A stretch of DNA of 64,000 nt from Methylocystis sp. (GTDB taxonomy: Bacteria; Pseudomonadota; Alphaproteobacteria; Rhizobiales; Beijerinckiaceae): positions 890,963 through 954,962 of the forward strand of contig NZ_JAXMCX010000001.1 in NCBI RefSeq assembly GCF_046349115.1, in the 5' to 3' direction. The notes under the pieces were generated by a model. The model searched no databases and was not told where the DNA came from. It saw nothing but the letters and a program-made list of their open reading frames with translations. Shown piece after piece: positions 8,429 through 23,371 of the stretch. Position 1 is the first letter of the stretch. Each line of letters begins with the position of its first letter. Both the position numbers and the translations under genes were made by a program.

Positions 8429-9184
8429 ATGGTCCAACCAGCATCTTATCCGGGCATCTGCAATATATGCGGGACGAAGGGAGAATTTGTCCGTGGCGAA
8501 GGCCGCTCGATTCGCGAATCCTTCGCCTGTCCAGGGTGCCGCGCGGCCTTGAGGTATCGCGATCAGGCGGCGTTGATCGTGGACGAGTTCGCGCGCGGCC
8601 GCTCGATTTTCCTGCGCAACCTCGTCTCGTCGGGAATGCTCAATGAGGTCGCGATTTTCGAGGCGGCGCTGCGCGGACCGTTCGTCAACGCCTTCAAGGG
8701 CCTCAAGGGATATGTGAAGAGCTATTTCTGGCCCGACCGCCCGCTCGGGGAAATCAACGCCGACGGCGTGCGCAACGAGGATCTCACGCGCCTGACGCTG
8801 CCGGCGAACAGTTTCGATCTCGTCATCACCAGCGACGTCATGGAGCATCTCTACGATATTCGAAGCGCCTTTTCCGAGATCGCCCGGGTTCTCAAGCCCG
8901 GCGGCGTGCATATTTTTTCGATTCCCAATGACTGGCCGTTTCCCGAGCGCACTGAGCCGCGCGTCGCGCTCGTCGATGGCGTAGAGGAGCATATCAAGCC
9001 GGCGCGCCATCACGTCAGCGGCGACGGAACACCCTGTCTCGTTTACAATGACTACGGAGCGGACATCGTTGATATCATCGCGGAGTTTGGTTGCCATACG
9101 CAGGTCGTGCGGCGGCATTCGCCGCTTGACCCCTGCTATGTCAACGCAACCTTCCTCTCCCGGAAAACTCGGTCAGCGATTTGA
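8429..9184 (+). CDS. Class I SAM-dependent methyltransferase with N-terminal CxxC...CxxC (zinc-ribbon-like) motif
   Basis: 'CNIC...CPGC' and 'SFDLVITSDVMEH...EIARVLKPGG'. Confidence 0.8.
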   Translation: MVQPASYPGICNICGTKGEFVRGEGRSIRESFACPGCRAALRYRDQAALIVDEFARGRSIFLRNLVSSGMLNEVAIFEAALRGPFVNAFKGLKGYVKSYFWPDRPLGEINADGVRNEDLTRLTLPANSFDLVITSDVMEHLYDIRSAFSEIARVLKPGGVHIFSIPNDWPFPERTEPRVALVDGVEEHIKPARHHVSGDGTPCLVYNDYGADIVDIIAEFGCHTQVVRRHSPLDPCYVNATFLSRKTRSAI

Positions 9185-10974
9185 ACGGTGATGACGCCTT
9201 GACGGTCACGCTGACATGCCCGGCCTGCGGTTCGAATGAATTTCTCGCATTCAATGGACGTGAGAATGCGCGCTGCGGGCGCTGCGGCTCGATGGAGCGA
9301 ACGCGCCTTCTTTGGATGATGCTAGAGAAATTCGATCTGTTCCGAATGGGACAGCGGGTTCTGCACATTGCGCCTGAACTGGCGCTGACGAAGCGCTTCT
9401 CCGAGCTGAGCGGCGACCGATATCACGGCTGCGACATTGATCCTTCGCGATATGCGTCCAGAATTGCGCCGATCAGATCGATCGATCTTTGCGTTGATCT
9501 CGCAAAAATGCCGAGCCGCAGCTTCGATTTGATCATCCATACCCATGTCTTGGAGCACATCGCCTGCGACGTTGAGAATGCGCTACAGGAAATGGAGCGC
9601 ATTCTGGCGCCTGGCGGACATCATTTTTTCTCCGTGCCGATCCGGGGAGAAATTACGCGCGAGGACATATCGGAAGATCTGACGCCGCAACATCGCGCCC
9701 TGATGTTTGGCCAAGAAGATCATCTTCGCATTTTCGGCTCGAAAAGCTTGGCCGAGATGCTTTCCCGCGTCTGGGGCGATGCGGGGAACCCGCTCGTCAC
9801 GCCGAGCGAGATTTTTTCAGAAGAGAAGTTGCGCACCGCCGCGATCCCGCCCGCGGCATGGTCTGGCTATTCGAGCCATTCGATATTTCATCATGTTCGT
9901 CCCATCGTCGATCGTGAGCCGTCGAGTCCCGCGCCCAAGCCACGTCAGCGCGCGATGGAAAAACCCGCGGAGCCGGGTGCGTCGGGGCGAAAGCTGTTGC
10001 TGAATATCGGCATGCCTGGCGCGCATTGTGTTGCGATCCAGAAATGGACGTCCGAGCAACATGCCCAATTGTCCGCCAGCGGCGTGGCGTGCTGGCGTCA
10101 CCCCGATCGGGAAAAACTCATGTTCATGGGTTTCGCCAGCGACCGTCGTATCGCGTCTGGCGATCTGCCATTCGCCCGATCGTTGCGGCAGGGCGAGAGC
10201 CCGCCAACTCAAGAAGCCGCCCGTGAAGCTCTGGAGACATTCCTGGAAACGCTGGACGGTCATATTGGCTATGTCGACGCCGTGTCGTTGTGGTCCTTCA
10301 CCGCCGACGAAGTACGATTGCTGCAATCGCAGCTTTCGACCTGGGGCGTTGAGGCGCATGTGCTTTGCTTCGTTTATAAGCCCGACGCTTATTTTACCGC
10401 TTTGATTGAACGTCAGACCCGCACTGCGGGCCTCGCGCTATCCGATCTCGGCGTTGGCGTCGCTCGCAAGCTGCGTTTTTCCTATTCGCGTCTCACCGCA
10501 TGGGCGGAGGCGTTCCAAGATAGATTTTCGATCGGCGATGCGGCCGACCGGCCGACTTCGCGGATCAGCGACCTGCTGATTGGGATGGGCGCCACGCCGA
10601 TCGATCGTCCGGGGGAGGCGAGCGCCTCAAGCAAAGCCGCGAGCCTCACGTCGATCAAGGCGCTGCTCGCTCTGAACGAGACGCTGCGCAAAAATGGAGA
10701 AACCTCCCCGCGTTACGCGTCGTTGCTCACGTCGGCGCTCGCGAGCATGGAGGGCCCGAGGTTCGTGCCGCCCGAAACCCTGACTTTGCGGATGCATTCG
10801 TTGCTGACACAGGAAAACGCGCTGCTCTATGACCGTTTCGGCTTGTCTTCCAAAGAGGAGAACGCGTCCGAGCGAATGGACGACCATCGGTTCCTCTATT
10901 GGACGCCAGAGGAAGTCGGCGAGTTGCTTTCCGCGATCAATGCGATGCTGCTTGAGCGGGAAACAAAGAACTAA
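9181..10974 (+). CDS. Class I SAM methyltransferase (N-terminal, zinc-ribbon-like) fused to a degenerate sulfotransferase/P-loop-like C-terminal domain
   Basis: 'CPAC...CGRC', 'VLHIAPE' and 'FDLIIHTHVLEH...ERILAPGG'; the C-terminal half begins 'KLLLNIGMPGAH' (resemblance only). TTG start overlaps the previous stop. Confidence 0.7.
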   Translation: MNGDDALTVTLTCPACGSNEFLAFNGRENARCGRCGSMERTRLLWMMLEKFDLFRMGQRVLHIAPELALTKRFSELSGDRYHGCDIDPSRYASRIAPIRSIDLCVDLAKMPSRSFDLIIHTHVLEHIACDVENALQEMERILAPGGHHFFSVPIRGEITREDISEDLTPQHRALMFGQEDHLRIFGSKSLAEMLSRVWGDAGNPLVTPSEIFSEEKLRTAAIPPAAWSGYSSHSIFHHVRPIVDREPSSPAPKPRQRAMEKPAEPGASGRKLLLNIGMPGAHCVAIQKWTSEQHAQLSASGVACWRHPDREKLMFMGFASDRRIASGDLPFARSLRQGESPPTQEAAREALETFLETLDGHIGYVDAVSLWSFTADEVRLLQSQLSTWGVEAHVLCFVYKPDAYFTALIERQTRTAGLALSDLGVGVARKLRFSYSRLTAWAEAFQDRFSIGDAADRPTSRISDLLIGMGATPIDRPGEASASSKAASLTSIKALLALNETLRKNGETSPRYASLLTSALASMEGPRFVPPETLTLRMHSLLTQENALLYDRFGLSSKEENASERMDDHRFLYWTPEEVGELLSAINAMLLERETKN

Positions 10975-10977
10975 GCG

Positions 10978-11781
10978 TCAGCCGTCGACCGGACGAGTTT
11001 CAGGCGCTTTGCTCGGCAAAAGCACCCACGATTGTCGTTGGTTTCGAATTTCGAGGTTATGTTCCCTCGCGAAGTCCTTGACATGTTCCTGCATCCGCAT
11101 GACGCCCGTTTCGTCCGGCCATAGCCAATCATCGCCGCAGAGAACCGCCTCGGGAAACAATTCGTGTGCGATGTCCAGATCATCGCGTTTCTTGCCGGCG
11201 TCGATGTAGATCATCTGCGGCTTGATTTCGCGCGCATGGAGATATTCAAGCGCTTCAGGCGAACGTTGACGCACCGGAATGAACCGGCTCTTGTAAAGGC
11301 GCACATTATTGAGCGCGATCGCAAAATTGCCATGGCGACGCAGATTGGCGACGATCGCCGCAATCTGTTCGTCCGTGAGATGAAATACCGTGCGCATTTG
11401 CAGTGGATCGACGGCGAGACGCTCGATATAGGCGGCCCAGTTGCTATCCCAGGGATCGATTCCGATGACCGTCAACTTGTCGGACGCGCGAAGCCATTGG
11501 AGAGTCGAGCCGCAAAGGAAGCAGCCGACTTCCACCATCAGCTCGACCTTTCTTGCCTTTATCGTGTCGATAATCAATTCACGGCCGCCGCCCCATTCGC
11601 AGCCTGCCCGCCGACCGCCGTCGAGCGGGAGGAAAAACGGTTCGATCTCGCCATAAATGAACTCGGGCCAGGGATTGTCGCGCCGCAACGCGTTGAGACC
11701 AAACAGGATACGGGAGACGGGCGCGGCCGGCGCCGGGGCCGGGCACGCTTTTTCAGTTTCGACGCTCTTGTTGATGCTCAC
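10978..11781 (-). CDS. Class I SAM methyltransferase (Methyltransf_24-like)
   Basis: 'MVEVGCFLCGST', 'VIGIDPW', 'MIYIDAG' and 'LCGDDW'. Confidence 0.75.
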   Translation of the reverse strand: MSINKSVETEKACPAPAPAAPVSRILFGLNALRRDNPWPEFIYGEIEPFFLPLDGGRRAGCEWGGGRELIIDTIKARKVELMVEVGCFLCGSTLQWLRASDKLTVIGIDPWDSNWAAYIERLAVDPLQMRTVFHLTDEQIAAIVANLRRHGNFAIALNNVRLYKSRFIPVRQRSPEALEYLHAREIKPQMIYIDAGKKRDDLDIAHELFPEAVLCGDDWLWPDETGVMRMQEHVKDFAREHNLEIRNQRQSWVLLPSKAPETRPVDG

Positions 11782-12401
11782 GCGAAGTCACTCCAAACCG
11801 CGGAAAGTCGGGAGAGCAGCGATGTCGCCGTCACATTCGGCTTTCGACGCAGTGACACGAGATTGGTTTGTTGTTCGACGATATCGGCGACATCGAGCAG
11901 GCTGCGATAATTCTTGCGGATCGACAGGGCGTCGTAAAAGTCGTGCATGAGGATGGCTGTCGTCTCGGGGCAGACCAGAAACGACGCGAGCCCGCAGGCC
12001 GTGCGGAAGCGGCCGTCAATCAGCACGACTTCAGGGACCCAGTCCAACTTTTCCCAGACCGGCAGGAAGTAATTAGGCCAGAGTTCCAGGCGGCTGCGAT
12101 TGGCCGGCATGCCCCAATCCATCACGGGTCCGATGTCCACGCAATTGATCGTTAGACGACCGTTCGATTCCGCTTGGCGAATGACAGGGTTTTGCCGCAA
12201 TTTATCAACCCATGCCGGATCGCTTTCAACGCTTAAGCAGCGGCGCGCGCCGCGTTCAAGTGCGAAAATGGTGCTGCCGCCCGAACCGAATTCGAGATAA
12301 CTGACGCCGGAAACGAGGTGACGCGAGAGCATTTCGATTTCTTCAGGCGTCATTGCCACTTTGAAATCGGTGTCCGGCGTATTAGGAGCGTCGCTGTTCA
12401 T
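11778..12401 (-). CDS. Putative SAM-dependent methyltransferase-like protein
   Basis: 'YLEFGSGGST', 'SVESDPAW', 'VVLIDGRFR' and 'ILMHDF'; ATGA overlap with the downstream gene. Confidence 0.65.
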   Translation of the reverse strand: MNSDAPNTPDTDFKVAMTPEEIEMLSRHLVSGVSYLEFGSGGSTIFALERGARRCLSVESDPAWVDKLRQNPVIRQAESNGRLTINCVDIGPVMDWGMPANRSRLELWPNYFLPVWEKLDWVPEVVLIDGRFRTACGLASFLVCPETTAILMHDFYDALSIRKNYRSLLDVADIVEQQTNLVSLRRKPNVTATSLLSRLSAVWSDFA

Positions 12402-12407
12402 CGCGTG

Positions 12408-13568
12408 TTAGTTCTCTCGCTGACGGGGCTGAAGGCGGAGCGGCAGCGTTGCGAATTGACGGATTTCCTGCTGCTCCATCAGGCGCGCCGGCGCCTCGCC
12501 GGGGAGGATGGAATATCGCTGCAACAGAACGGTCAGAAAGCGCCGTGCTTGTCGTCGCGCGAACACGGCGCCGACGCATAAATGCGATCCGGCGCCGAAA
12601 GCCAAAGTGGGCGGGCCCCGGCGGGCGATATCGAATCTGTCGGGGTCGGGATACGCCTCGGGATCGTGATTGGCGCTTTCGATGACGACATGTACGAGAG
12701 CGCCTTCGGGAATCATTGTGTCGCCGAGCCTCAAACCGCCTTCGCCAACGACCCGCGAGCGCTGGCGAATGGAGCCGCAAAAGCGAAGCGCCTCCTCGAC
12801 GAAAGCGGATGCAACCTCGGGCTTGCCGCGAAGCATATCCTGCAAATCCGGCCGGTTCGCCAGAAGATGCAAGACATTCCCAAAAAAGGCGGCGATGGTT
12901 TCATTGGCGATCGCGATGAGGAAAAACACGGCCGATTCCCTCTGCCGCGCCGGCAATGACAGATCAATTTCGTCGAGCCGCGCCTTCCCGCCAAGAATCG
13001 GACAGCCGTGACTGGCCCAGCGCTCCGTGAGACGATCATGGACATAGAGCGACAGCGACTGTCGACGCTCATATTCACGAAGCGGCATCGCTGGCTGCCA
13101 GTCTTCGAGCACTTGTCTGCCCGCAAGACGCAGGTCGCGCAATTCGTCGCGAGAAAACCCCAACGACTCTCCGAGCAGCCCGTCGGGAAGGTCGTAGCAG
13201 AGTTCGGTCATGCCGTCGATTTCTCCGGCAGAGCGCTCGAATAGGCGCGACGCGGCGCGATCGATTCTCGCGTAGGAATATGCTTTCGACATTTCCCGGA
13301 TGATGACGTGCAGGAAGTCGCGCGACGGTCCGTGTTCGGGGGGATTTTGCAAGATCGGCAGGCTGCCGACGAGCGCGGCAAGATTCTCGAAAGATCCGCC
13401 CATCCGGTCGGAGACGCGCGCGGCCAGCGTGCTGGCTCCGGCGGCGACCGACACGTTGGGCGCCCGCAGCGCGCCGATCGCATCCTCGTAACGCGTTATG
13501 ATCCACGCGTTGTCCGAAGGCCTGCAATAGGGCTTGCCCACCGGTTGATAGTCGATCGAAACTGGCAT
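12408..13568 (-). CDS. Cytochrome P450
   Basis: Heme motif 'AFGAGSHLCVG', ExxR 'EEALR', meander 'PDRFDI' and I-helix 'IANET'; start trimmed to the ATG at 13568. Confidence 0.93.
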   Translation of the reverse strand: MPVSIDYQPVGKPYCRPSDNAWIITRYEDAIGALRAPNVSVAAGASTLAARVSDRMGGSFENLAALVGSLPILQNPPEHGPSRDFLHVIIREMSKAYSYARIDRAASRLFERSAGEIDGMTELCYDLPDGLLGESLGFSRDELRDLRLAGRQVLEDWQPAMPLREYERRQSLSLYVHDRLTERWASHGCPILGGKARLDEIDLSLPARQRESAVFFLIAIANETIAAFFGNVLHLLANRPDLQDMLRGKPEVASAFVEEALRFCGSIRQRSRVVGEGGLRLGDTMIPEGALVHVVIESANHDPEAYPDPDRFDIARRGPPTLAFGAGSHLCVGAVFARRQARRFLTVLLQRYSILPGEAPARLMEQQEIRQFATLPLRLQPRQREN

Positions 13569-13640
13569 GCGGGCGCTTGCTCTTTGCGAGGCTCGGTTGG
13601 AGAATACGGGCGAGCATATATTCTTTCGAACCGTACACCA

Positions 13641-15329
13641 ATGACGCCATCCTCCGCCACACGGAATTCCGCGACGGCGCGCATCCTTCGCCATGCGTCA
13701 CGCGCGCCTGATCGCGAGGCGATCATCTTCCTCGACCGAGGCGAAACGGTATCGACGCGCTTGACTTATGAAAGTCTTGTTTCGCAGGTGGGCGGCATGG
13801 CCCGTCGCTTGGCGGCCGAAGGGTTTTCCGGCAAGGCGATCGTGATTGCGCTGCCGGCAGGAATCGCTTTCGTGAGGCTTTTCCTTGCCTGTCTCTGGGC
13901 GCGCGTCATCGTGATACCGGCGCCGTACCCTAGCAATGCGCGACTTCTGAATCGGCTTCATGCCTTGGTCGCCGACTCGCGGCCTGTCGCGCTCGTCACG
14001 GACGCGAATGGCGTCGCGAAAATTCCGTCCCTGCCGCAGACGGGCGCGCCTTTGAGGATATTGGACATTTCATCTCTCGCGGATGAAAATCTCTCGCCGC
14101 TCGAGCCGCTCGCTGGAGCAGGCGACGCGCCGGCGATTATCCAATATACATCGGGGTCTACAAGCGAACCGCGCGGCGCGGTCATCACCCATGACAATCT
14201 TTTCGCCAATCAATGCATGATCCAGTCCGCCTTCGGCCACGACGAGCGTTGCGTGGGCGCCAATTGGCTTCCGCATTTTCACGACATGGGCCTTCTCGGC
14301 GTCATCCTTCAGCCTTTATTTGTCGGCGGATCGACCGTCCTCATGGACCCGCTTGCCTTCATCCAAAAGCCGATTCGCTGGCTTCGCGCGATCGACCGAT
14401 TTCACGCGACGACGGCGGGCGGACCATGCTTCGCCTACGACCTCTGCGCGCGACATTGCGCGCCAGAGGACATCGAGAAGCTGGATCTATCCTCTTGGCG
14501 GGTCGCCTTCTGCGGCGCGGAGCCGATACGCCGCGCGACCCTCGACGCCTTTGCGGCGACGTGCGCCTCAGCGAGCTTCGACCCTCGCGCATTGACGCCC
14601 TGTTATGGCCTCGCCGAAGCGACGCTCATTGTTTCTTCGGCGAACCCCGGCAATGGCGCGCGAGAACTTCCGGCGTCGGGCCTGGGATCGAAGGGGACGA
14701 CGACTTTGGCGGTCGGTTGCGGTTATCCGGCGCCGGAATGCAAAATTCTGGTGCGCGCCGCCGACGGCGCGCCATTGCCCGACGGGGAGGCGGGGGAAAT
14801 CTGGGTCGCCGGGCCGCACGTCTCCCCCGGCGTCTGGAACGGAGAAGAGGGAGGCGTGAATCCCTTCAACGACTCCTTCGTCGATGAGGCGGGAGATCGT
14901 TACATCGCCACCGGCGATCTTGGGGCGCTGGTGAACGGCGAACTCGTGCCGCTGGATCGGCTGAAGGACATCATTATCGTCTATGGTCAGAAGCTCCATT
15001 CGGCGGATATTGAAGCAACCTTGCTGTCGCATCGCTTGTCGGCCGAACTGCTTGCGGCCTGCGCCTTTTCGATAGAGACGGCGAAGGGCGATCAGCTGGT
15101 CGTTGTTTGCGAGATGGATCGCAAGCGATTCCGGGAGGGAGCGGCACTTGAACTCGCCGCGCAACTTAAGAAAATCATAGCGGAGTCTTTTGGCGTCTTG
15201 CCGCAGTTGGCGATTGTTCCGTATGGTGCGTTGCCTCGCACGACCAGCGGAAAAATTCAGCGTTCCGTGAGCAAGTCCGAATGGCTCGCCGGCAGGATCG
15301 CGGAGGCGTCGAGGCTCACCAACGCGTGA
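13641..15329 (+). CDS. Fatty acyl-AMP ligase (FAAL)
   Basis: 'IQYTSGSTSEPRG', 'NWLPHFHDMGL', 'FCGAEPI', 'PCYGLAEATL', 'TGDLG' and 'LPRTTSGKIQR'. Confidence 0.92.
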   Translation: MTPSSATRNSATARILRHASRAPDREAIIFLDRGETVSTRLTYESLVSQVGGMARRLAAEGFSGKAIVIALPAGIAFVRLFLACLWARVIVIPAPYPSNARLLNRLHALVADSRPVALVTDANGVAKIPSLPQTGAPLRILDISSLADENLSPLEPLAGAGDAPAIIQYTSGSTSEPRGAVITHDNLFANQCMIQSAFGHDERCVGANWLPHFHDMGLLGVILQPLFVGGSTVLMDPLAFIQKPIRWLRAIDRFHATTAGGPCFAYDLCARHCAPEDIEKLDLSSWRVAFCGAEPIRRATLDAFAATCASASFDPRALTPCYGLAEATLIVSSANPGNGARELPASGLGSKGTTTLAVGCGYPAPECKILVRAADGAPLPDGEAGEIWVAGPHVSPGVWNGEEGGVNPFNDSFVDEAGDRYIATGDLGALVNGELVPLDRLKDIIIVYGQKLHSADIEATLLSHRLSAELLAACAFSIETAKGDQLVVVCEMDRKRFREGAALELAAQLKKIIAESFGVLPQLAIVPYGALPRTTSGKIQRSVSKSEWLAGRIAEASRLTNA

Positions 15330-15352
15330 TTTTGGAAGAATGGAGGGGAGAC

Positions 15353-15625
15353 ATGCAGGATCCGGTCGTGACGCAAACGGATCGTGAGCGCATTGTTGAT
15401 TGGATGGTGCGGCATATCGGCTCGGTTCTCGAAATGCCGAAAGACGACTTCCCGATCGAAGAGCGCTTCGACGCTTATGGGCTCGACTCCATCGAGGCGG
15501 TGATCATGGCGGGACTTATGGAGGAGGAATTCGGCGTCCCGATCGACCCGATGACCTTGTTCCAAAATCCGAGCGTCGCAAAATTCGCGGATTTCCTCGC
15601 GCCGGTCCTCTCCGAACGGCGCTGA
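15353..15625 (+). CDS. Acyl carrier protein
   Basis: 90 aa and acidic; phosphopantetheine site 'YGLDSI'; RBS GGAGGGGAG; directly after the FAAL. Confidence 0.92.
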   Translation: MQDPVVTQTDRERIVDWMVRHIGSVLEMPKDDFPIEERFDAYGLDSIEAVIMAGLMEEEFGVPIDPMTLFQNPSVAKFADFLAPVLSERR

Positions 15626-15629
15626 TGGC

Positions 15630-16493
15630 ATGTCCCTTGACGCGCCGGAGATTTCCCTCGTCGTCGTCTGTTATGAAATGGCGCGAGAGCTGCCGCGCAC
15701 GTTGCAATCTCTCTCCACTCCTTACCAGCGCGGCGTCGATCCCGGCCAATATGAGATCGTCATCGTCGACAACGGCTCCCGCTCTCCGCCGTCTCTCGCC
15801 GATTTTCCCGACATCGTCCCTCGGACGACGATTATTTCCTGTTCCCGCAAAACGACTTCGCCCGTGCCGGCGATAAACGAGGGACTGACGGTCGCGCGCG
15901 GAAAATTGATTGGCGTGTGGATCGATGGCGCGCGCATGGCCTCGCCGGGGTTGTTGCGATCCTGCCTTGAAGCGTCGCGCTTGCATTCGAGACCGATAAT
16001 CGCGACGCTCAACTACCAGCTTGGCCCGGCCCGCCAGGCGATCAGCGCGGACCTGGGCTATGACGTCGCCGCCGAGGACGCGCTCCTTTCCGACATCGGA
16101 TGGTTTGAAAACGGATATCGCCTCTTCGACATTGCGACCCCAGAGATCGCCGAGCCGACCGCGCCGATGCTCGAGAGCAACGCATTGTTTCTGCCGCGCG
16201 CATTGTGGGACGAACTTGGCGGGTATGACGAAGCCTTTACGTCCAAGGGCGGCGGCATGGCCAATCCGGACATATTTATTCGCGCCGTCGGTCTTCCCGC
16301 CGCACAGCTGATACGCATCGCCGGCGAGGGAACATTCCATCAAATCCACGGCGGATTGACCACGGCGGGACTGAAGCCGACTCTGGATTACGTCAAGGAA
16401 GCGAGCAGGGAATATCGCGCGATACGTGGTCGCGCCCTCGCGCCCATCCGCGCCCCGGGCTGGCTGTACCGATCCCCCGAAGCGGAGCGATGA
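15630..16493 (+). CDS. Glycosyltransferase family 2 (GT-A)
   Basis: 'LVVVCYEM', 'IVIVDNGS', 'AINEGL...ARG' and 'LWDELGGYDEAF'. Confidence 0.88.
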   Translation: MSLDAPEISLVVVCYEMARELPRTLQSLSTPYQRGVDPGQYEIVIVDNGSRSPPSLADFPDIVPRTTIISCSRKTTSPVPAINEGLTVARGKLIGVWIDGARMASPGLLRSCLEASRLHSRPIIATLNYQLGPARQAISADLGYDVAAEDALLSDIGWFENGYRLFDIATPEIAEPTAPMLESNALFLPRALWDELGGYDEAFTSKGGGMANPDIFIRAVGLPAAQLIRIAGEGTFHQIHGGLTTAGLKPTLDYVKEASREYRAIRGRALAPIRAPGWLYRSPEAER

Positions 16494-16568: not shown

Positions 16569-19235
16569 CTAATTCAGATAGGGCCGAAGAAAGGTGAGAA
16601 TTTCGTCGACCCGTGTTTTCCAGCTGATCTTGTCGAGGACGTCGCGATGGTCTTCCGCGTCGGCCTTTCGCGACGCCTTCGCCAGGCAGTTCTCGATCGC
16701 CGCGGCGAACTCCTCCGGTCCGTCGGCGGTGGAAATCAAATCGGCAAGCTCGTTCAAATTCGGAATCGCCGTCGATACGACCGGGACGCCGGCCGCGAGG
16801 TAATTATATACTTTGAGCGGATTCATCGAATTGGTCAGATCGTTCACCGTATGGGGAACAACGCCAACGTCGATCGAGTTTAGAAACGACGGTAGGTCAT
16901 GATATTCAACAACGCCTAGAAACCTGACGTTTTCATACTTCGCGATTGAGGCGATATTCGAATTATTCTCCGCCGAACCTGCAAAAACGAACGACCATTC
17001 GGGTCGCATGCGCACGAGTCCTTCCAAGAGTTCCCAATCGATGCGGTCACGAAGATTTCCCACATAGCCAATGGTTGGCCGACCTGGCTGTGCAATACCC
17101 TCAATTGGGGCCAATTTGTCGGCGATGGCGTCGAAGCGTTCCGCACCATTCGGCACGATCCGTATCGGGTTCGCGACATAATTTTCGAAATTGGCGGCGA
17201 CCGGCGCGCAATTCGCGAACGTCACCTGCGCGAAAGAAAGCGTCTGTCGGTAGATATCGTCCAGTCGCTTTCGGTAACCGTCGTCAATATCCCAGGATCG
17301 CTGGTCGTCGATGATGTCCGCGACGCACGTCTTGAAGCCAAGTTCCGAAAAGATTTGCGGGAACTGCCAGACCACCGGACACACCCAGGCGATCGTGTCT
17401 TTCGGATCAAAGCCCGCCTCCTGCATCTCTCGGGCGACGAAGGCGGGAAAATCCGCTTGTTCAGGCAAATCGCGCCCCAAAAGCCGCGATCGCGACGCGC
17501 TCTTGTGGATGAAACTTCGTTGCAGGAGACGGTCCGTGTCGAGGCGTCGTTCGAAACGCGCGATGGTGTTGCGCAAGACGAGCGCGGACTGATCCTGCGG
17601 CGCGGCGTTGGCATTCTGGGCGAGCGCGTCAAGAGTAGCGGCCCCGATTGGGGCGTCGAAAAACAGAATCCTGTCGATTTCGTCGGAAAGCAAAAGATGC
17701 TTGGCGATCATGTCGGATCGCCGGCCGTAAATCCCCGTGTCGTTCTGCTTCCAGAAAAAAACGACATTCGCGCAGGGCCGCGGCGATCTGGCGAGCGCCG
17801 GAATCGGAAAATGTGATTTAGCGGTGTGCGCGGCCGCTTCGCCGATCGCTTCCGACATCAATGCGCGCACGTCGTGAAACACTTGCGGCAACGGCTTGAC
17901 GCTCTTGATTTCGCCGATTGCGAGCTGCAAGCGCGCCCTGTTCACGGCTTCGCTGAATTCAGTAAGGAAGCCGCTTCGAATTTTGCTCCTGTCGACTTCG
18001 TCTTTGGCAGCTTTCAGTTCGAGAAGTTTATCCTTCAGCGTTTCGTGACGAACTAGGTGAAGGCCAGGCAGTTCGCGCAGATCCAGCAGCGGCGGAACGT
18101 CGGTAATGAGCACGGGAACGCCCATCGCCGTCGCATCCGAAATCTTCGATGGAATTTGATAGGCGGCGACGGGATGGTCCGGGTCTTGAAGCAGCGGAAT
18201 GCAGTCGGCCGCGCAAAGCAGCCATGGCAGATTGTCAAATGACCAGCTCGGATGCTGTACGACGCGCGTGCGCTGGAAGCGCTTCAGCATTTTGCCCAAA
18301 TCCGCGGGCGCGCCGTCGCCGACGATATGGAGACTGATCTTGTCGTCGGCGATCTCGTCGATCGCCTGCAAAACTTCGATCACGCCCTTGTGCGGCCGGA
18401 CCGTTCCGACAAAAATTAGCGCGAACTCGTCGTCGGCCACGCCCAGCTCGCGACGAACCGACGCTCGGTCGAAGCGCGTGGGGTCGAAGGCGTTCTCGTC
18501 GCGGGCGTGCCGAACGATCGAGCCTCCATAACGGTCTCGAAGCGCGACGTTCGAAACCGTCAGAACGTCAGCGCTTTCAATGAAATTTTCAGCAAAGCGC
18601 GTGGCGATCTCTTCATAAGGCTCCATCAGCGCGGCGGGGCCGGCGTTTCGGACCTCGGCAAGATCGGCGCGCAACCGGTTCTCGAAGAAGGAAAGTTCGT
18701 GGTCGTCGATGTCGAGGACGAGCGGGCATCCCGAGTGCTCCTTGATCAGGAAGCCGAGAAAGAGCGATGGCAGCCTCGGTTTCGAGACATATACGAGATC
18801 GAAGCGCTCTTTGGTCGCCTCCAGCGCCGCGCGCGGATAAAAATCCAGCAGCGTGCGGCACGGAAAGACACGCGCCTCTAACCCGCTCTCCACTAGCGGC
18901 GGCCACAGACCATTGCCGTAGCGTCGCCAACCAGGACCAATAACGACGGGACTCCAGTCTTGCGACAGAAGGCGCTGCAAGACATAGGCGCGCCCGACGG
19001 GGTTGTGTCCCATGTCCCAGGAGATGATCGCCGCGCGCCCTCCGGCAGAGGCGCGTTTGACCGCAGCGGCGTCGTTGTGCGCCCGGGCGACATTGGCGAG
19101 GCGCTCGGTTCGCGCCGATCTCAGGTCGTTTTCCAAACGCAGGATATGACGTTCGAGATCGTCGGCGTGGCGCATTTCGGCGCCAAGCGTCGACATCAGC
19201 AGTTCGATATTTTGTGAAAGCCGACGCCCCGCCAA
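16569..19235 (-). CDS. Large two-module GT-B (GT4-like) glycosyltransferase with N-terminal coiled coil
   Basis: Module 1 has 'FVGTVRPHKG' and 'SKISDATAMGVPV'; module 2 has 'IGYVGNL' and 'PLKVYNYLAAGVPVVST'. TTG start abuts the upstream TAA. Confidence 0.85.
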   Translation of the reverse strand: MAGRRLSQNIELLMSTLGAEMRHADDLERHILRLENDLRSARTERLANVARAHNDAAAVKRASAGGRAAIISWDMGHNPVGRAYVLQRLLSQDWSPVVIGPGWRRYGNGLWPPLVESGLEARVFPCRTLLDFYPRAALEATKERFDLVYVSKPRLPSLFLGFLIKEHSGCPLVLDIDDHELSFFENRLRADLAEVRNAGPAALMEPYEEIATRFAENFIESADVLTVSNVALRDRYGGSIVRHARDENAFDPTRFDRASVRRELGVADDEFALIFVGTVRPHKGVIEVLQAIDEIADDKISLHIVGDGAPADLGKMLKRFQRTRVVQHPSWSFDNLPWLLCAADCIPLLQDPDHPVAAYQIPSKISDATAMGVPVLITDVPPLLDLRELPGLHLVRHETLKDKLLELKAAKDEVDRSKIRSGFLTEFSEAVNRARLQLAIGEIKSVKPLPQVFHDVRALMSEAIGEAAAHTAKSHFPIPALARSPRPCANVVFFWKQNDTGIYGRRSDMIAKHLLLSDEIDRILFFDAPIGAATLDALAQNANAAPQDQSALVLRNTIARFERRLDTDRLLQRSFIHKSASRSRLLGRDLPEQADFPAFVAREMQEAGFDPKDTIAWVCPVVWQFPQIFSELGFKTCVADIIDDQRSWDIDDGYRKRLDDIYRQTLSFAQVTFANCAPVAANFENYVANPIRIVPNGAERFDAIADKLAPIEGIAQPGRPTIGYVGNLRDRIDWELLEGLVRMRPEWSFVFAGSAENNSNIASIAKYENVRFLGVVEYHDLPSFLNSIDVGVVPHTVNDLTNSMNPLKVYNYLAAGVPVVSTAIPNLNELADLISTADGPEEFAAAIENCLAKASRKADAEDHRDVLDKISWKTRVDEILTFLRPYLN

Positions 19236-20135: not shown

Positions 20136-20957
20136 TCAGGCGCGCCGTTTGCTCACTTCCCCCGAAACCATGCGCATCCATTTCCGAACGATATCTGGAT
20201 GACGCTGCAGGGCGGCAGGATGAAATTCGTCCTCGGGCGCCGATTCGAGATCGAAGCCGCCATGGTCGCGTCCGCTCACGAGCGTCGCCGAAACGCGCTC
20301 GCTCCCGGTTTGCGTCAAGTCGCCGGCGATATAGCGAATGGCAAAGCCGACCCGGCGCGTCCCGCCGGCGTTTGGTTTCGAGCCATGAATCAACAAGAGA
20401 TGGTGCAGCGACATTTCTCCCGGCCTCAGGATAATGTCGACGGCCTGCGATTCATCGACGTTGAACGCGATTTCTTCCCGGCCGGGCAGCATGTTCCACG
20501 CATCGTTGCTATCGCGGTGAGGCGCCGTTCCGGCATGGGAGCCGGGAAGGACCCGCATGCAGCCGTTCTCTGATCCGCTTGCGGAAAAAGCAACCCATGC
20601 CGTCAGGGCGCGCGGCTCGGAAAGTCCCCAATATGTTGCGTCCTGGTGCCAGGGAACATGCTGTGGCTCGCCGGGCTCCTTCATGAAGAAACTTGCGGCC
20701 CAGCACAGCAGATCGGGTCCAAGAATGTCCTGGACAGGTCGTAAGATGCGCTCGTCGCGCACCAGATCCCACAGTTGAGGGATCAGTAAGTGCGCCTTGA
20801 TATTGAATGTTGGAGACAGCCGTCCGCCGCGCTTGGCCTGAATCGCGTCGAGCCGCGCCAAATGATCGGCCATTTCATCGGGCTCGAAGGCGCTCAGCGG
20901 AGTCAGATAGCCGTCGCGGCGGTAGGCCTCAATTCGGCCCGCGTCGAGTCGCGTCAT
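20136..20957 (-). CDS. PhyH-family Fe(II)/2-oxoglutarate dioxygenase (copy 2)
   Basis: 'WHQDATYW', 'ENGCMRVLPGSH', 'HHLLLIHGS' and 'RRVGFAIRY'. Confidence 0.9.
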   Translation of the reverse strand: MTRLDAGRIEAYRRDGYLTPLSAFEPDEMADHLARLDAIQAKRGGRLSPTFNIKAHLLIPQLWDLVRDERILRPVQDILGPDLLCWAASFFMKEPGEPQHVPWHQDATYWGLSEPRALTAWVAFSASGSENGCMRVLPGSHAGTAPHRDSNDAWNMLPGREEIAFNVDESQAVDIILRPGEMSLHHLLLIHGSKPNAGGTRRVGFAIRYIAGDLTQTGSERVSATLVSGRDHGGFDLESAPEDEFHPAALQRHPDIVRKWMRMVSGEVSKRRA

Positions 20958-20994
20958 TCCAGCCACTTGGTCCGATCCCTCTCTCCACTGAAAA

Positions 20995-21846
20995 TCAGTC
21001 GCTGGCGCGGCTCTCCGTTTTGATGGCGCTGGGCGCGCCATCGAAGATGATTCTCATCCCGTCGCGGACGATGCCGATGTGACGAGCGACGGCGGCGGGA
21101 TGAAATTCCCCTTCCGGCTCCTTCTCAAGCGCGAAGCTCCCGAGATTGCGGCCTCGCACGAGCGTCGCGGAGTTTCGCTTCCCGTCCCTCGGCATGGTTG
21201 CGCCGGACATATAACGTATCGCGAAGCCGACGCGGCGCAGGCGCGAATTGTTGCGCGCGGAGCCATGGACAGCAAGGCAATGATGCAAGGACATTTCTCC
21301 TGGCGCGAGCGCTAAATCGATCGCGTCGGAAGCTTCGACCTGCGCGACCATCTTTTCTCCGCGACCGAGCAGATTGGCGCTGTCCCCGGAGTCTGTGTGC
21401 GCCAAGCTGTGGCGATGGGTTCCGGGGACAGCCCGCACACAGCCGTTTTCTGGGACGCTCGGCGTCAGCGCCAGCCAGGCGGTCACCGCATCCGTCGTGC
21501 TTAGGCCCCAATAAGTGATGTCCTGGTGCCAGGCGACGTAGCGCGAACCGCCAGGCGATTTGGAAATGAAACTCGTTCCAAAACACAGAATATCCGGTCC
21601 AAGCAGAGCTTCGATTCGCTCGACAATTCTGGGGTCGTGCACGAGGTCCCACAGCCACGGGACGAGCAAATGCGGCTTGGCGTTGAAGACAGGCGAAAGC
21701 CGGCCGGCGCGCCGCGCTTCCATCGCTTCGAGCCGCGCCAGGCAATCGCTCGCTTCCTGGGGTTCGAGAACCTTGATCGGAAAAACGAACCCATCGCGCG
21801 AAAAGCGATCGAGTTCATCCTGGGTTAGACGATTGGCAACGCTCAT
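20995..21846 (-). CDS. PhyH-family Fe(II)/2-oxoglutarate dioxygenase (copy 1)
   Basis: 'WHQDITYW', 'ENGCVRAVPGTH', 'HHCLAVHGS' and 'RRVGFAIRY'; RBS GGAGAGG. Confidence 0.9.
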   Translation of the reverse strand: MSVANRLTQDELDRFSRDGFVFPIKVLEPQEASDCLARLEAMEARRAGRLSPVFNAKPHLLVPWLWDLVHDPRIVERIEALLGPDILCFGTSFISKSPGGSRYVAWHQDITYWGLSTTDAVTAWLALTPSVPENGCVRAVPGTHRHSLAHTDSGDSANLLGRGEKMVAQVEASDAIDLALAPGEMSLHHCLAVHGSARNNSRLRRVGFAIRYMSGATMPRDGKRNSATLVRGRNLGSFALEKEPEGEFHPAAVARHIGIVRDGMRIIFDGAPSAIKTESRASD

Positions 21847-21981
21847 TCGCCCTCTCCCTGCGATCGCCAATCCGTACCGACGCCATCATTGGCAAAAGCC
21901 GAGGCCCCGAGCACTCGCATGAAGTAAGGCTCCGATGCAATATGCGGATTCAGCTGGCGGCCTTGGCGTTCGATGACGGAC

Positions 21982-23247
21982 TCACTTCCTGATCGCGGCA
22001 AAGTCGGCCGCACGGCGCACAACCGGCTGCATCGCCCATTGGGGGCCAAGTTCGCGGAGTCCAAAGGCGAATATCGCCGACAGGAAGCGCCGGCGCGCTT
22101 CCGAGAACTGTTCAGGGGTCGCGATGGCGTCTTCAATGCGCCGCCAGTGCCGATCAAGCGCGTCAAACGTCCTTTGGGGGATGCGGCAGGCGAGCGCTTC
22201 GCCCTTCCGGGCAGCGCCCGCGCCATACGCGGTCGCCCAGTCGCGCGCGAGATCTTCCATTCGATCGATGTGCTCCAGGAAACCGGCGAACTTACGATAG
22301 GCAGGCCTGGCGACGAGTATTCCCGGAACGCCATAGGCGGCCGCGGTGATATAGCCATGTAGCGACGCTCCAACATAAAATCTGGAAAAGGCAATCGCCG
22401 CGGCGACTTCTCGAAGGCTCGCGGGATCATCGAGCAAGATGTGCGGAATCGGGAGATGGAGAGAGATCGCTCGCGCCAAAACGTCGTCGTCATGGGCGCG
22501 CCCGATGGCGCTCAGGATCGGCGTAAGCTCCATTTCCTTGGCGAAGGCGGACAGCATCGCCGCGGCTTCCTGGGGCGTTTGCCCGGCGAGCGACCGGTTG
22601 CGAAAGTGAACCGCGACGAAGTTGGTTCGCCCTTGGAATCCCTTGCGCGCAAGGAAAGACTGGAAAGGTTCCTCGAGATCGCGCGTTGTCCAGAGTCGGC
22701 CGAGCTCCGCGATCGGATCGGGCACGATTTCGACCGGAAGGCCTTCCGGCGCCGCCAGGAGTTCTGCTCCGCCGCGGTCGCGCACCGAAACATAGGAAGA
22801 TGACCTCAACGCGGCGTCGACGAGCGCGCGTTGCGATTGCGGGATTGGATGGGGCACGCCGGGGGCGTTCCAGGCGAGGGGAACATCGCGCAGAGCGGCG
22901 GCAAGCGCGGCGCCGAGCCACAGGCCGGCGCCGGCCCATTCTCCGACATTCGTTCCTTGATATTCGCGCAGAATATCCATCCGGTGCGTGTGAATGAGAT
23001 AGCCGCCGCCGATGACGATGCCGTCGACCCTCAAGTCGCCGCTCAGCATTTCGGCGATGTCGAGAGGCGAAAGAGCGTCGGGCACGCCGGCATGCGCTTT
23101 CGTCGGCGCGATGGGAACAACCTCGACGCCGAGAGCGCTTAGGCGCCGCGCCGCGACCAGGGGGAACAGGAGATCACCGTAATTCTGCATGTCGAAGACG
23201 CCAGTCAGAAAAATTCTCTTGGCGCCGTTAGACGGGACAGGAGGCAT
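21982..23247 (-). CDS. Polysaccharide pyruvyl transferase family protein
   Basis: 'NYGDLLFP', 'IVIGGG', 'YVSVRD', 'VPDP' and 'YVGASLHGYITA'. Confidence 0.85.
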   Translation of the reverse strand: MPPVPSNGAKRIFLTGVFDMQNYGDLLFPLVAARRLSALGVEVVPIAPTKAHAGVPDALSPLDIAEMLSGDLRVDGIVIGGGYLIHTHRMDILREYQGTNVGEWAGAGLWLGAALAAALRDVPLAWNAPGVPHPIPQSQRALVDAALRSSSYVSVRDRGGAELLAAPEGLPVEIVPDPIAELGRLWTTRDLEEPFQSFLARKGFQGRTNFVAVHFRNRSLAGQTPQEAAAMLSAFAKEMELTPILSAIGRAHDDDVLARAISLHLPIPHILLDDPASLREVAAAIAFSRFYVGASLHGYITAAAYGVPGILVARPAYRKFAGFLEHIDRMEDLARDWATAYGAGAARKGEALACRIPQRTFDALDRHWRRIEDAIATPEQFSEARRRFLSAIFAFGLRELGPQWAMQPVVRRAADFAAIRK

Positions 23248-23371
23248 CGAGCTCTTCCGGTTTGGAGCATCGCGATTCTACGTTATCATAGCCAAGGATT
23301 GCGGGTTCGGCGCGACGCCGCCAAAGCGGGCCCGTCACGCCTCGACTCATTCGCGCAAAATGAGGAGCCCA

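Follow-up and report, generated by a model that had tools for sequence, protein, structure and literature searches.

A fatty acid probably loaded on its own carrier, oxidised, glycosylated and released without an assembly line: a gene cassette of Methylocystis and a few distant bacteria

Gene content of the locus

The window analysed here is a stretch of 64,000 nucleotides from a Methylocystis genome, and its features of interest are listed in Table 1. A sequence-only reading had described two divergent three-gene operons at 10978–16493. All six genes exist as claimed, with reading frames and junctions confirmed by the sequence after three corrections. The 72-bp divergent spacer, in which no sigma-70 consensus was found, and the 6-bp gap between the P450 and the 207-aa frame are as described, but the 4-bp overlap of the two methyltransferase-like frames is GTGA, with a GTG start, and not ATGA. 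The genes lie in a ∼28-kb island that also holds giant glycosyltransferases, a GDP-heptose pathway and a sulfotransferase, and encodes neither a redox partner nor an exporter. For comparison I used ten cassette loci (eight of type A, two of type B), from Methylocystis-like genomes, Rhizomicrobium, Roseomonas, Propylenella, Ancylobacter, Rhodobacter capsulatus, Methylomagnum and metagenomes; the gene set is rare, and occurs in a few distant bacteria as well.

Table 1. Features of the cassette and its neighbourhood, in window coordinates.
Feature	Coordinates	Strand	Properties
Class I SAM methyltransferase	8429..9184	+	251 aa; PF08241 50.1 bits
Zn-ribbon and methyltransferase protein	9181..10974	+	597 aa; PF13489/PF08241, Zn-ribbon match
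Methyltransferase-like MTB267	10978..11781	-	267 aa, GTG start; motifs
Methyltransferase-like MTA207	11778..12401	-	207 aa; PDB 3cvo match
Cytochrome P450	12408..13568	-	386 aa; PF00067 71.5 bits
Divergent P450/FAAL intergenic region	13569..13640	.	72 bp
Fatty acyl-AMP ligase (FAAL)	13641..15329	+	562 aa; PF00501 189.9 bits
Dedicated acyl carrier protein (ACP)	15353..15625	+	90 aa; PF00550 57 bits; GLDS phosphopantetheine serine
GT-A fold glycosyltransferase-like GT2L	15630..16493	+	287 aa; PF00535 32.1 bits (cut-off 23.3)
Double GT4 glycosyltransferase	16569..19235	-	888 aa; PF13692/PF00534, two stretches
Two tandem PhyH-type Fe(II)/2-oxoglutarate dioxygenases	20136..21846	-	PF05721 102 + 86 bits
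Polysaccharide pyruvyl-transferase family protein	21982..23247	-	421 aa; PF04230 87.4 bits
TPR repeat protein with C-terminal serine alpha/beta-hydrolase domain	23372..25078	+	8/10 loci

In the right arm, the FAAL scores highest with the NCBIfam FAAL models (300–309 bits, under their curated cut-offs), and its best solved relatives are all fatty-acid FAALs (7r7f, 349 bits; 3kxw, 303 bits). The true start of the ACP is the ATG at 15353, preceded by a GGAGGGGA ribosome-binding site; the homologue in locus L001 also has 90 residues, and two PPTase genes lie elsewhere on the genome. GT2L starts 4 bp past the ACP stop codon. Its AF2 model (pLDDT 86.6) finds WrtF, K4CP, RmlT and TarP/TarS as best Foldseek matches (probability 1.0, TM 0.5–0.57), and the motifs DNGS, IDGAR, GGxDE..PGGG and FHQxHGG are invariant, with D-G-A in place of a canonical DxD, which is absent. 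The GT2L family counts >2,500 members; at large they occur among glycan genes with neither FAAL nor ACP and are often fused to methyltransferases, so the acceptor could be a sugar and not a lipid. The cassette GT2Ls form one clade (support 100/99, stem 0.56), beyond which fall all of the outsiders in the tree (8 members from non-cassette loci and 25 drawn at random from the family). The branching of this clade mirrors that of the FAAL tree: FAAL and glycosyltransferase co-evolve.

In the left arm, the P450 adjoins the FAAL in all ten loci and keeps its heme ligand (FGAGSHLCVG, residues 324–333), the ExxR at 259 and the I-helix ANET at 221. Among solved structures it is closest to P450s of secondary metabolism, CxnD, NocL, TamI and PikC among them, and it is not specifically similar to any acyl-ACP P450 already described. 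The two remaining genes, previously called methyltransferases, are methyltransferase-like, but membership of a methyltransferase family did not hold up, as no Pfam or NCBIfam model matched either of them. MTA207, with homologues only in Methylocystis-type loci (L001, L047), matches the 'methyltransferase-like protein' 3cvo (E 4.9e-22) and carries the motif LEFGSGGS at residue 36. MTB267 can be called methyltransferase-like by its motifs (VEVGCFLCGS at 83, IYIDAGK at 191, GDDW at 216) and by only a few relatives with PF13578 or a COG YrrM name; among the 174 clusters of its family few have PF13578 and one is named as a YrrM-type O-methyltransferase. Two relatives are fused to SCP2 lipid-binding domains. 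No accessory gene of the type A module is conserved more strongly than MTB267; its homologues in L001, L047, Rhizomicrobium and Roseomonas share 66–88% identity with it, against just 46–85% for the FAAL. Outside Methylocystis-type loci it sits at a different position; of the two methyltransferase-like genes it alone recurs there.

Among the flanking genes, the class I methyltransferase accompanies the cassette in Methylocystis-type, Rhizomicrobium and Roseomonas loci (tblastn, 66–95% identity in L001, L047, L049 and L069), and more weakly in L068 (41%). The Zn-ribbon protein, which has a long uncharacterised C-terminal part, is found with the cassette in five loci (40–82% identity in L001, L047, L049 and L069). 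The double GT4 enzyme has homologues beside the cassette at five of the ten loci (L001, L047/L048, L068, L072), with 35–89% identity in L001, L047, L068 and L072. A pyruvyl-transferase homologue is present in 8/10 loci, with two copies in Propylenella, and in P0076 and P0088 it is fused N-terminally to the FAAL. The PhyH pair, which also occurs in L001, L047, L049 and L069, carries WHQD motifs and has its best NCBIfam match in TIGR01762, 'chlorinating enzyme' (SyrB2/CmaB), at 99.8 and 76.7 bits against a cut-off of 226. Both proteins keep the HxD...H triad, which makes them hydroxylase type.

Conservation of the cassette

FAAL, P450, ACP and GT2L are adjacent in 10/10 loci examined, at FAAL identities of 42–85%, a linkage that exceeds chance. 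Gene order and strand are rearranged between loci; the two three-gene operons are therefore a local arrangement, and of the unit proposed earlier it is this quartet that is conserved. The ACP is followed directly by GT2L in all loci except one. A pyruvyl-transferase homologue and the TPR protein accompany the quartet in 8/10, and in five loci a strongly conserved methyltransferase-like protein and two Fe/2OG hydroxylases of the SyrB2 family are present as well. The real module thus extends past 10978–16493, to the pyruvyl-transferase homologue, the TPR-hydrolase and the two Fe/2OG hydroxylases.

The sequence-only reading had noted that the window holds no thioesterase, which is probably wrong in view of the hydrolase domain that ends the TPR protein. 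The conserved start of this protein is M62 of the 629-aa ORF. In the alignment, G500-x-S502-x-G-G505 and D560 are invariant, and His613 is kept in seven of eight sequences. The AF2 model has a pLDDT of 84, with residues 1–75 disordered; Foldseek relates the TPR part to SPY/OGT and the C-terminal part to the serine hydrolases 5jd6 and 9niz (target-normalised TM 0.61–0.63). Matches to Abhydrolase_6/UPF0227 are sub-threshold in Pfam, and the hydrolase domain is absent from both type B loci. By its motifs and predicted fold, the protein is a candidate thioesterase or acyltransferase and likely the off-loading enzyme.

Neither an NRPS condensation domain nor a multidomain PKS is encoded in the cassette-bearing genomes of Rhizomicrobium and Propylenella, whose ketosynthases are all of FabB/F size, and hence the pathway needs no assembly line, as had been proposed. 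FAAL and ACP do not always pair with a PKS or NRPS, and the P450 and the GT2-like protein co-occur with them at every one of the ten loci. The present genome does encode one NRPS (2433 aa, C-A-T-C-A-T), also carried by the closest cassette genome, G481. Since this enzyme begins with a C domain in both, and since the sister group of the type B FAALs consists of NRPS-fused FAALs, FAAL and ACP might feed its starter condensation domain in trans, the neighbouring genes then tailoring a lipopeptide. I consider this very improbable: the NRPS sits on another contig, two cassette genomes lack any condensation domain, and the conserved partners of the FAAL at every locus are P450, ACP and GT2L, not an NRPS.

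Proposed pathway

The pathway that I infer, including its substrate, order of steps, sugar acceptor, hydrolase role and link to a glycan, would start with the FAAL adenylating a fatty acid and loading it on the dedicated 90-aa ACP. The P450 would oxidise the carrier-bound chain, in this genome probably together with the two SyrB2-family hydroxylases. The specialised GT-A glycosyltransferase would then place a sugar on the oxidised chain, either while the chain is still carrier-bound, in the manner of MitB and MmcB, or once it has been released; the pyruvyl-transferase homologue and Methyltransf_24-like proteins may tailor the sugar, and the TPR protein would off-load the product through its alpha/beta-hydrolase domain. 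Such a route would yield a hydroxy fatty acid with glycosyl, pyruvyl and/or O-methyl groups, which in the Methylocystis island is probably a primer, anchor or cap for the glycan of the adjacent giant GT4 enzymes.

I judge the chances of such a thiotemplated lipid-tailoring pathway, with no need for an assembly line, to be about even, and the earlier idea of a thiotemplated oxidised glycolipid to be partly supported. In its favour are the adjacency of the quartet despite shuffled order and strand, the ACP–GT2L pairing (with a 4-bp gap here), the single GT2L clade branching as in the FAAL tree, the fusion of pyruvyl transferase to FAAL, the GxSxGG, Asp, near-invariant His and alpha/beta-hydrolase fold of the TPR protein, the fatty-acid FAALs as closest solved relatives of the ligase, the SCP2 fusions of MTB267 relatives, the two genomes without C domain or multidomain KS, the two PPTases, and precedents for FAAL-ACP tailoring with thioesterase release in polyynes (PMC9828172) and for ACP-dependent glycosylation by MitB (PMC8621148). 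Oxidation on the carrier, as suggested earlier, is plausible, as the best match of both PhyH paralogues is to the SyrB2/CmaB family, whose members depend on carrier proteins. The reading is weakened by the glycan contexts of the GT2L family and its D-G-A in place of DxD, by the hydrolase domain being missing in type B loci and below Pfam thresholds, by the assignment of MTB267 from motifs only, and by a P450 without specific acyl-ACP P450 similarity in an island without redox partner or exporter.

These glycan contexts suggest another pathway, in which an oxidised acyl group provided by FAAL and ACP is esterified by the TPR-hydrolase, as an acyltransferase, to a sugar of the island's polysaccharide, while GT2L, pyruvyl transferase and methyltransferases act on the glycan and not on a lipid. 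Sugars are the usual substrates of pyruvyl transferases. GT2L relatives generally lie beside glycan genes (GT4, DegT aminotransferase, sulfotransferase, methyltransferases), a giant GT4 adjoins 7/8 type A loci, and the cassette itself sits inside the glycan-related island. However, the compact eight-gene operon of Propylenella has no polymerising glycosyltransferase nearby, and neither type B locus has one in the cluster; the separate GT2L clade on its long stem suggests a changed acceptor, and the tight ACP–GT2L pairing would go unexplained if GT2L never met the carrier. I regard acylation of a glycan as somewhat unlikely, and as second to the lipid-tailoring pathway.

Comparison with known systems

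The sequence-only reading proposed an assembly-line-free FAAL pathway, a kind of pathway that was already known. In the polyyne cassettes (cay/pgn), a FAAL and ACP are joined by a desaturase triad and a thioesterase, plus the P450 CayG (PMC9828172). There too a stand-alone FAAL loads a designated ACP, with tailoring on the carrier, hydrolase release, no PKS/NRPS, and possibly a P450. What is new here is the set of tailoring partners on that theme: the P450 is joined by Fe/2OG hydroxylases, a GT-A glycosyltransferase, methyltransferase-like proteins and a homologue of pyruvyl transferases, desaturases and rubredoxin are missing, and the hydrolase comes fused to TPR repeats. A glycolipid, not a polyyne, would result.

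The early steps of mitomycin synthesis are a second precedent, with the acyl ligase MitE, the ACP MmcB and the ACP-dependent glycosyltransferase MitB (PMC8621148). By analogy, ligase, stand-alone ACP and ∼30-kDa glycosyltransferase have counterparts here, and MitB glycosylates a carrier-bound acyl group outside an assembly line. MitB works without a P450, a pyruvyl transferase or a TPR-hydrolase as partner, and its likeness to GT2L would be one of pathway logic. MitE, from an actinomycete host, uses AHBA and not a fatty acid. FAAL-like enzymes can load other acids, as FadD22 loads p-hydroxybenzoate. An aromatic, amino or short functionalised acid could thus be the substrate here, leading to a small glycosylated natural product; this would fit the MitE-MmcB-MitB logic, with its ∼33-kDa glycosyltransferase, the radical SAM enzyme present in both the mitomycin pathway and the type B loci (PMC8621148), and the secondary-metabolite relatives of the P450. 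Such a substrate is nevertheless unlikely, given the FAAL similarities of the ligase, the SCP2 fusions of some MTB267 relatives, and clusters without genes for making an unusual acid.

FAAL-ACP loading modules such as jamaicamide JamA/JamB, cylindrocyclophane CylA/CylB and olefin synthase are discussed in a review in which the terms 'P450' and 'glycosyl' are absent (PMC11837247). They share the ligase family (the FAAL domain 7r7f being the best solved relative), have a cognate ACP next to the ligase, and can tailor the carrier-bound chain (desaturation by JamB), but the acyl-ACP then goes to a ketosynthase or a condensation domain, none of which is linked to the cassette. The SyrB2/CmaB/HctB-type enzymes (TIGR01762) are the closest family of the PhyH paralogues, which share their cluster with a dedicated carrier; the paralogues keep the Asp of HxD, as in hydroxylases and not halogenases, and at 100/77 bits are far under the family cut-off.

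Yeast sophorolipids are made by P450 omega/omega-1 hydroxylation of a fatty acid, followed by glycosylation of the hydroxy fatty acid. That eukaryotic pathway differs in using free fatty acids and GT1 enzymes with no carrier protein, but has the same chemical logic as the one proposed here, in which the new hydroxyl would receive the sugar.

Gene layout and the surrounding island

All six open reading frames (ORFs) that the sequence-only reading had assigned to a glycolipid pathway are found in the sequence with the junctions it described, and only small corrections are needed (see table). The spacer between the divergent P450 and FAAL genes is 72 bp when read from the sequence, as claimed, while the overlap between the 207-aa and 267-aa ORFs, reported as ATGA, reads GTGA. 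The ACP start is the ATG at 15353, preceded by a GGAGGGGA ribosome-binding site. The 72-bp spacer yielded no sigma-70-like promoter. The window corresponds to C1:890963-954962 of a 3.33-Mb genome in 9 contigs, and the six genes sit inside a ~28-kb island (8.4-36.6 kb; 8429-36586). Beyond these genes, the island encodes four methyltransferases, an 888-aa double GT4 protein, a 1242-aa GT2+GT4 protein, two PhyH dioxygenases, a pyruvyl-transferase homologue (PyrT), a TPR protein, a GDP-heptose pathway and a sulfotransferase.

Features of the cassette, compared loci and related gene sets (window positions for this window, otherwise positions in the locus or contig named)
Feature	Locus	Position	Strand	Remarks
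P450	this window	12408-13568	minus	386 aa
MTA207 (methyltransferase-like)	this window	11778-12401	minus	207-aa ORF, 6 bp after P450
MTB267 (methyltransferase-like)	this window	10978-11781	minus	267-aa ORF, 4-bp overlap with 207-aa ORF
FAAL	this window	13641-15329	plus	first gene of plus-strand set
ACP	this window	15353-15625	plus	90 aa, 23 bp downstream of FAAL, GLDS motif
GT2L (GT2-like protein)	this window	15630-16493	plus	287 aa, 4 bp after ACP
Compared locus	this window			Methylocystis
Compared locus	L001			Methylocystis MAG
Compared locus	L047/L048			metagenome, 66% identity
Compared locus	L049			Rhizomicrobium
Compared locus	L069			Roseomonas rosea
Compared locus	L068			metagenome
Compared locus	L071			Propylenella binzhouense
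Compared locus	L072			Ancylobacter sonchi
Compared locus, type B cluster	L050	9069-17603		Rhodobacter capsulatus
Compared locus, type B cluster	L070	10001-17718		Methylomagnum ishizawai, gammaproteobacterium
PyrT::FAAL fusion	L068; also P0088	8868-11789 (L068)		metagenome contig; 973-979-aa proteins
FAAL-ACP-P450 genes	L003	7558-11617		Sphingomonas MAG
GT2L-family domain	L062	9704-11950		no FAAL/ACP
GT2L-family domains	L064	8395-10404; 10504-11295		no FAAL/ACP
NRPS	own genome, contig C3	~36.0-43.3 kb		2433 aa, outside the window

A conserved quartet in two versions

Ten loci were compared, taken as the neighbourhoods of FAAL homologues at 42-85% identity, the nearest of which, in a Methylocystis MAG (85%), shows full synteny. 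FAAL, P450, ACP and GT2L are adjacent in every one of them, but their order and strand vary. In Roseomonas, PyrT-ACP-GT2L-P450-TPR share a strand, opposite PhyH-PhyH-FAAL-MTB267, whereas Propylenella has a single operon, TPR-MT-PyrT-PyrT-FAAL-P450-ACP-GT2L. Since order and strand differ between loci, the two three-gene operons, although present in the window, are a local arrangement, and the quartet is the conserved unit. The earlier interpretation is supported in part, with the cassette boundaries wider than first drawn.

The cassette exists in two versions. In type A (eight loci, this window included), the quartet is accompanied by a PF04230 PyrT and a TPR protein of 540-630 aa; five of these loci also encode two PhyH paralogues, the 267-aa protein, a 251-aa methyltransferase and a 597-aa Zn-ribbon methyltransferase. 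Type B (R. capsulatus and Methylomagnum) has neither pyruvyl transferase nor TPR-hydrolase; it carries instead a radical SAM/SPASM protein and two fusions, GT2L::TylF (591 aa) and Methyltransf_24::CmcI (487 aa). Identity of the R. capsulatus cassette with the known RcGTA capsule-receptor cluster was considered and rejected, as the paper on rcc01081-01086 mentions no P450, AMP ligase or ACP. This type B carrier, R. capsulatus, is genetically tractable.

Cassette relatives number about a hundred, from environmental Alphaproteobacteria and one methanotrophic gammaproteobacterium. FAAL homologues below ~40% identity (Streptomyces, Amycolatopsis, Verrucomicrobia) showed no cassette, so the family ends at about this level, and a tblastn search of a plasmid collection returned PKS/NRPS-type FAALs only. 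A Sphingomonas MAG (L003) encodes a FAAL at 37% identity with ACP and P450 genes just upstream and no GT2L; these three genes may form a related unit whose output differs.

A proposed assembly-line-free pathway and its relation to known systems

FAALs are mostly known as PKS/NRPS loaders, with polyynes as the main demonstrated exception. The proposal that this pathway is free of an assembly line is supported: among seven other cassette genomes, those of Rhizomicrobium and Propylenella lack condensation domains altogether and encode just two ketosynthases apiece, all FabB/F-sized, so that FAAL-ACP pairs of this family do not always go with a PKS or NRPS, and dependence of the cassette on either is ruled out. 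These two genomes also speak against a smaller rival reading, in which the FAAL and ACP lipoinitiate the Methylocystis genome's own NRPS in trans. The ketosynthases of the Methylocystis genome itself are likewise FabB/F-sized only. Its single NRPS (C-A-T-C-A-T) starts with a condensation domain, and the same protein occurs in the closest cassette-bearing MAG.

The most economical reading of the cassette is thiotemplated fatty-acid tailoring. The FAAL would load a fatty acid on the ACP, the P450, together with two Fe/2OG enzymes in this genome, would oxidise the chain, and the specialised GT-A enzyme GT2L would glycosylate it; PyrT and the methyltransferase-like proteins would then tailor the sugar, and the TPR-hydrolase would off-load the product. 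What this scheme says of chain length, step order, sugar and on-carrier glycosylation is inferred.

Pathways in which a FAAL feeds thiotemplated tailoring with no assembly line are an established kind. The cassette shares FAAL, ACP and a candidate hydrolase with the polyyne type (PMC9828172) but not its desaturase triad, and neither the window nor any related locus yielded a desaturase; the two have a common logic and are different families. In the mitomycin pathway, a ligase (MitE) and a stand-alone ACP (MmcB) work with a ~33 kDa ACP-dependent glycosyltransferase, MitB (PMC8621148). Here too the logic is common, but the cassette ligase is a fatty-acid-type FAAL, and its partners (P450, SyrB2-like hydroxylases, PyrT, TPR-hydrolase) are unlike those of either system. 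The terms 'P450' and 'glycosyl' do not appear in a 2025 FAAL review (PMC11837247), and a full-text search of open-access papers gave no match to the gene combination. The cassette is a real, conserved variant that is apparently undescribed. With it, the thiotemplated tailoring of fatty acids would gain a second family, chemically distinct in combining oxidation and glycosylation, with a clear minimal gene set, and its product may be a surface glycolipid or a glycan anchor of methanotrophs.

Activation and oxidation of the acyl chain

The FAAL has the AMP-binding adenylation fold (PF00501, 189.9 bits) and is closer to established FAALs than to acyl-CoA synthetases, its best 15 PDB relatives all being FAALs or FadD-type AMP ligases. 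The NCBIfam FAAL models PRK09192 (309 bits) and PRK05850 (300 bits) rank top, both below their curated cut-offs, and the alignment to 7r7f is unbroken across the N-terminal domain. As the top solved relatives, 7r7f (349 bits) and 3kxw (303 bits), are fatty-acid FAALs, the substrate is likely a fatty acid. The SCP2 sterol-carrier lipid-binding domain present in two relatives of the 267-aa protein (P0188 and P0195, 349 aa each) points the same way. These observations speak against a smaller rival, in which a non-fatty acid is activated as in the mitomycin pathway. An ACP was found in all ten cassette loci, and two phosphopantetheinyl transferases are encoded elsewhere in this genome. In two database proteins (P0076 and P0088), a PyrT domain is fused to the N-terminus of the FAAL, which argues that both enzymes work together physically.

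The P450 (PF00067, 71.5 bits against a cut-off of 22.8) has the heme-thiolate motif FxxGxxxCxG (FGAGSHLCVG at 324), the ExxR motif (EALR at 259) and the I-helix acid-alcohol pair (ANET at 221), and is, judged by these motifs, a true heme enzyme. Loss of the heme cysteine is a feature of P450-derived glycosyltransferase activators of the DesVIII/EryCII type. The family of such activators, TIGR04515, is the best NCBIfam match, yet the score (102 bits) is far under the cut-off of 343 and the cysteine ligand is kept, and the P450 is therefore not a heme-less activator. BioI is absent from its best 60 solved relatives; putative BioI-type oxidation of the acyl-ACP has its one support in the conserved linkage of the P450 to the FAAL and ACP genes.

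Both PhyH paralogues have as their best NCBIfam match TIGR01762 (99.8 and 76.7 bits, below cut-off), the SyrB2/CmaB family, which acts on carrier-tethered substrates. A halogenase function is ruled out by the Asp of the HxD motif, retained in both, so these enzymes would hydroxylate rather than halogenate. As listed, their ORFs (20136-21870) overlap by 47 bp; starting at the conserved M29 (first) and M9 (second) leaves a 37-bp gap.

A specialised GT-A clade

GT2L is predicted to adopt a GT-A Rossmann-like fold (AF2 pLDDT 86.6), and a Foldseek search with this model returned the GT2 enzymes WrtF, K4CP, RmlT, TarP and TarS (probability 1.0, TM 0.5-0.57). PF00535 matches only the N-terminal half, with 32.1 bits where the cut-off is 23.3. 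In place of the canonical DxD, the protein has an invariant D99-G100-A101-R102, without the second acidic residue, so glycosyltransferase activity is probable rather than certain. The other invariant motifs are DNGS, GGxDE..PGGG and FHQxHGG, the last of which could provide alternative ligands in place of DxD.

The ACP gene is followed by GT2L in nine of the ten loci. The wider GT2L family has more than 2,500 members and is rare in sampled genomes (1/400 in the class, 6/80 among relatives); most members occur in glycan contexts with no FAAL or ACP, often fused to methyltransferases. In a tree of the ten cassette members, eight non-cassette members and 25 random family members, the cassette GT2Ls group in a single clade (support 100/99) on a long stem, with both other sets outside it. 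Branching inside this clade parallels the FAAL tree, the mark of a subfamily whose specialisation went hand in hand with that of the FAAL and ACP. The clade is a testable entry point, and may act on a carrier-bound lipid.

In the main rival to thiotemplated tailoring, the island's glycan would receive both the acyl group and the sugar. This is favoured by the giant GT4 beside most type A loci and by the general association of the GT2L family with glycans; the compact operon of Propylenella and the distinct clade formed by the cassette GT2Ls count against it.

Family members without FAAL or ACP were also seen in L062 and L064 (other species, same genus), fused to Methyltransf_11 and/or Methyltransf_24 (748 and 669 aa). 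L064 has two tandem copies beside a type I restriction-modification system.

Methyltransferase-like proteins and PyrT

The sequence-only reading called both minus-strand proteins downstream of the P450 methyltransferases. This holds for the 207-aa protein, which is similar over residues 15-155 to PDB 3cvo, a structural-genomics 'methyltransferase-like protein' (E 4.9e-22), and with its LEFGSGGS motif I would have the features of a class I SAM-methyltransferase, although no Pfam or NCBIfam model matches it. Among the ten loci it was seen only in those of the Methylocystis type. The 267-aa protein is methyltransferase-like only by its motifs (ExGxxxGxS and IDAxK) and a few relatives: among the 120 listed, two contain PF13578, and one bears the name YrrM O-methyltransferase. 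Searches of Pfam, NCBIfam and the PDB gave nothing significant for it (best PDB E 0.11), and hhalign against local TylF and Methyltransf_24 proteins was weak, with a probability of at most 8%. It is strongly conserved, at 66-88% identity against 46-85% for the FAAL in the same loci (Methylocystis-type, Rhizomicrobium, Roseomonas), and this family offers a further testable entry point.

PyrT exceeds the PF04230 threshold (87.4 bits against 25.3) and matches NCBIfam CsaB at 49 bits, below the cut-off.

A TPR-hydrolase as candidate release enzyme

A thioesterase had been reported absent from the window, but the TPR protein starting at 23372 is a candidate. Aligned across eight loci, it has an invariant GASMGG (S502) and D560, with His613 in seven of the eight. 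The AlphaFold model (pLDDT 84) shows a TPR solenoid at residues 80-405, followed by a beta-alpha-beta domain at 416-629. The Foldseek matches are SPY/OGT for the TPR part and, for the C-terminal part, two serine hydrolases, 5jd6 and 9niz (target-normalised TM 0.61-0.63), while Pfam Abhydrolase_6 and UPF0227 match the nucleophile elbow at E 0.0003-0.1, below cut-offs. The modelled C-terminal domain thus has the expected features of an alpha/beta-hydrolase fold, with a GxSxG elbow and a putative Ser-Asp-His triad, making the protein a good candidate for a thioesterase or acyltransferase. Such a TPR-alpha/beta-hydrolase family, previously unrecognised, would be another testable entry point. The type B loci yielded no hydrolase domain: a 370-aa R. 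capsulatus protein gave no match and a 765-aa Methylomagnum protein matches the TPR part only.

Rather improbably, the TPR-hydrolase could instead pass the glycosylated, oxidised acyl-ACP on as a polymer primer or anchor, or its TPR array could recruit a protein for glycolipidation, in an OGT/SPY-like manner. With a primer or anchor, the acyl-ACP product may not be simply hydrolysed, and the polymer makers may all be soluble and cytoplasmic: the giant GT4s, the heptose pathway, the sulfotransferase and six methyltransferases or methyltransferase-like proteins (one by motifs only). In a simple scan for hydropathy, the island proteins look soluble, except for one 320-aa ORF with a single hydrophobic segment. 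No flippase, polymerase, ABC-2 permease or polyprenyl-phosphate glycosyltransferase was found in the ~28-kb island, the nearest ABC-2 permease lying ~470 kb off on the same contig. If the primer or anchor reading were true, the product would be a fatty-acid-anchored, heavily methylated lipoglycan independent of undecaprenyl phosphate, for which mycobacterial polymethylated polysaccharides are a loose comparison.

As listed, the TPR ORF begins at 23189 and has 629 aa, with a conserved start at M62 (23372). The first 61 codons (23189-23371) are unconserved outside Methylocystis and predicted disordered. M62 is probably the true start, which gives a 124-bp divergent spacer to the PyrT gene rather than a 59-bp overlap.
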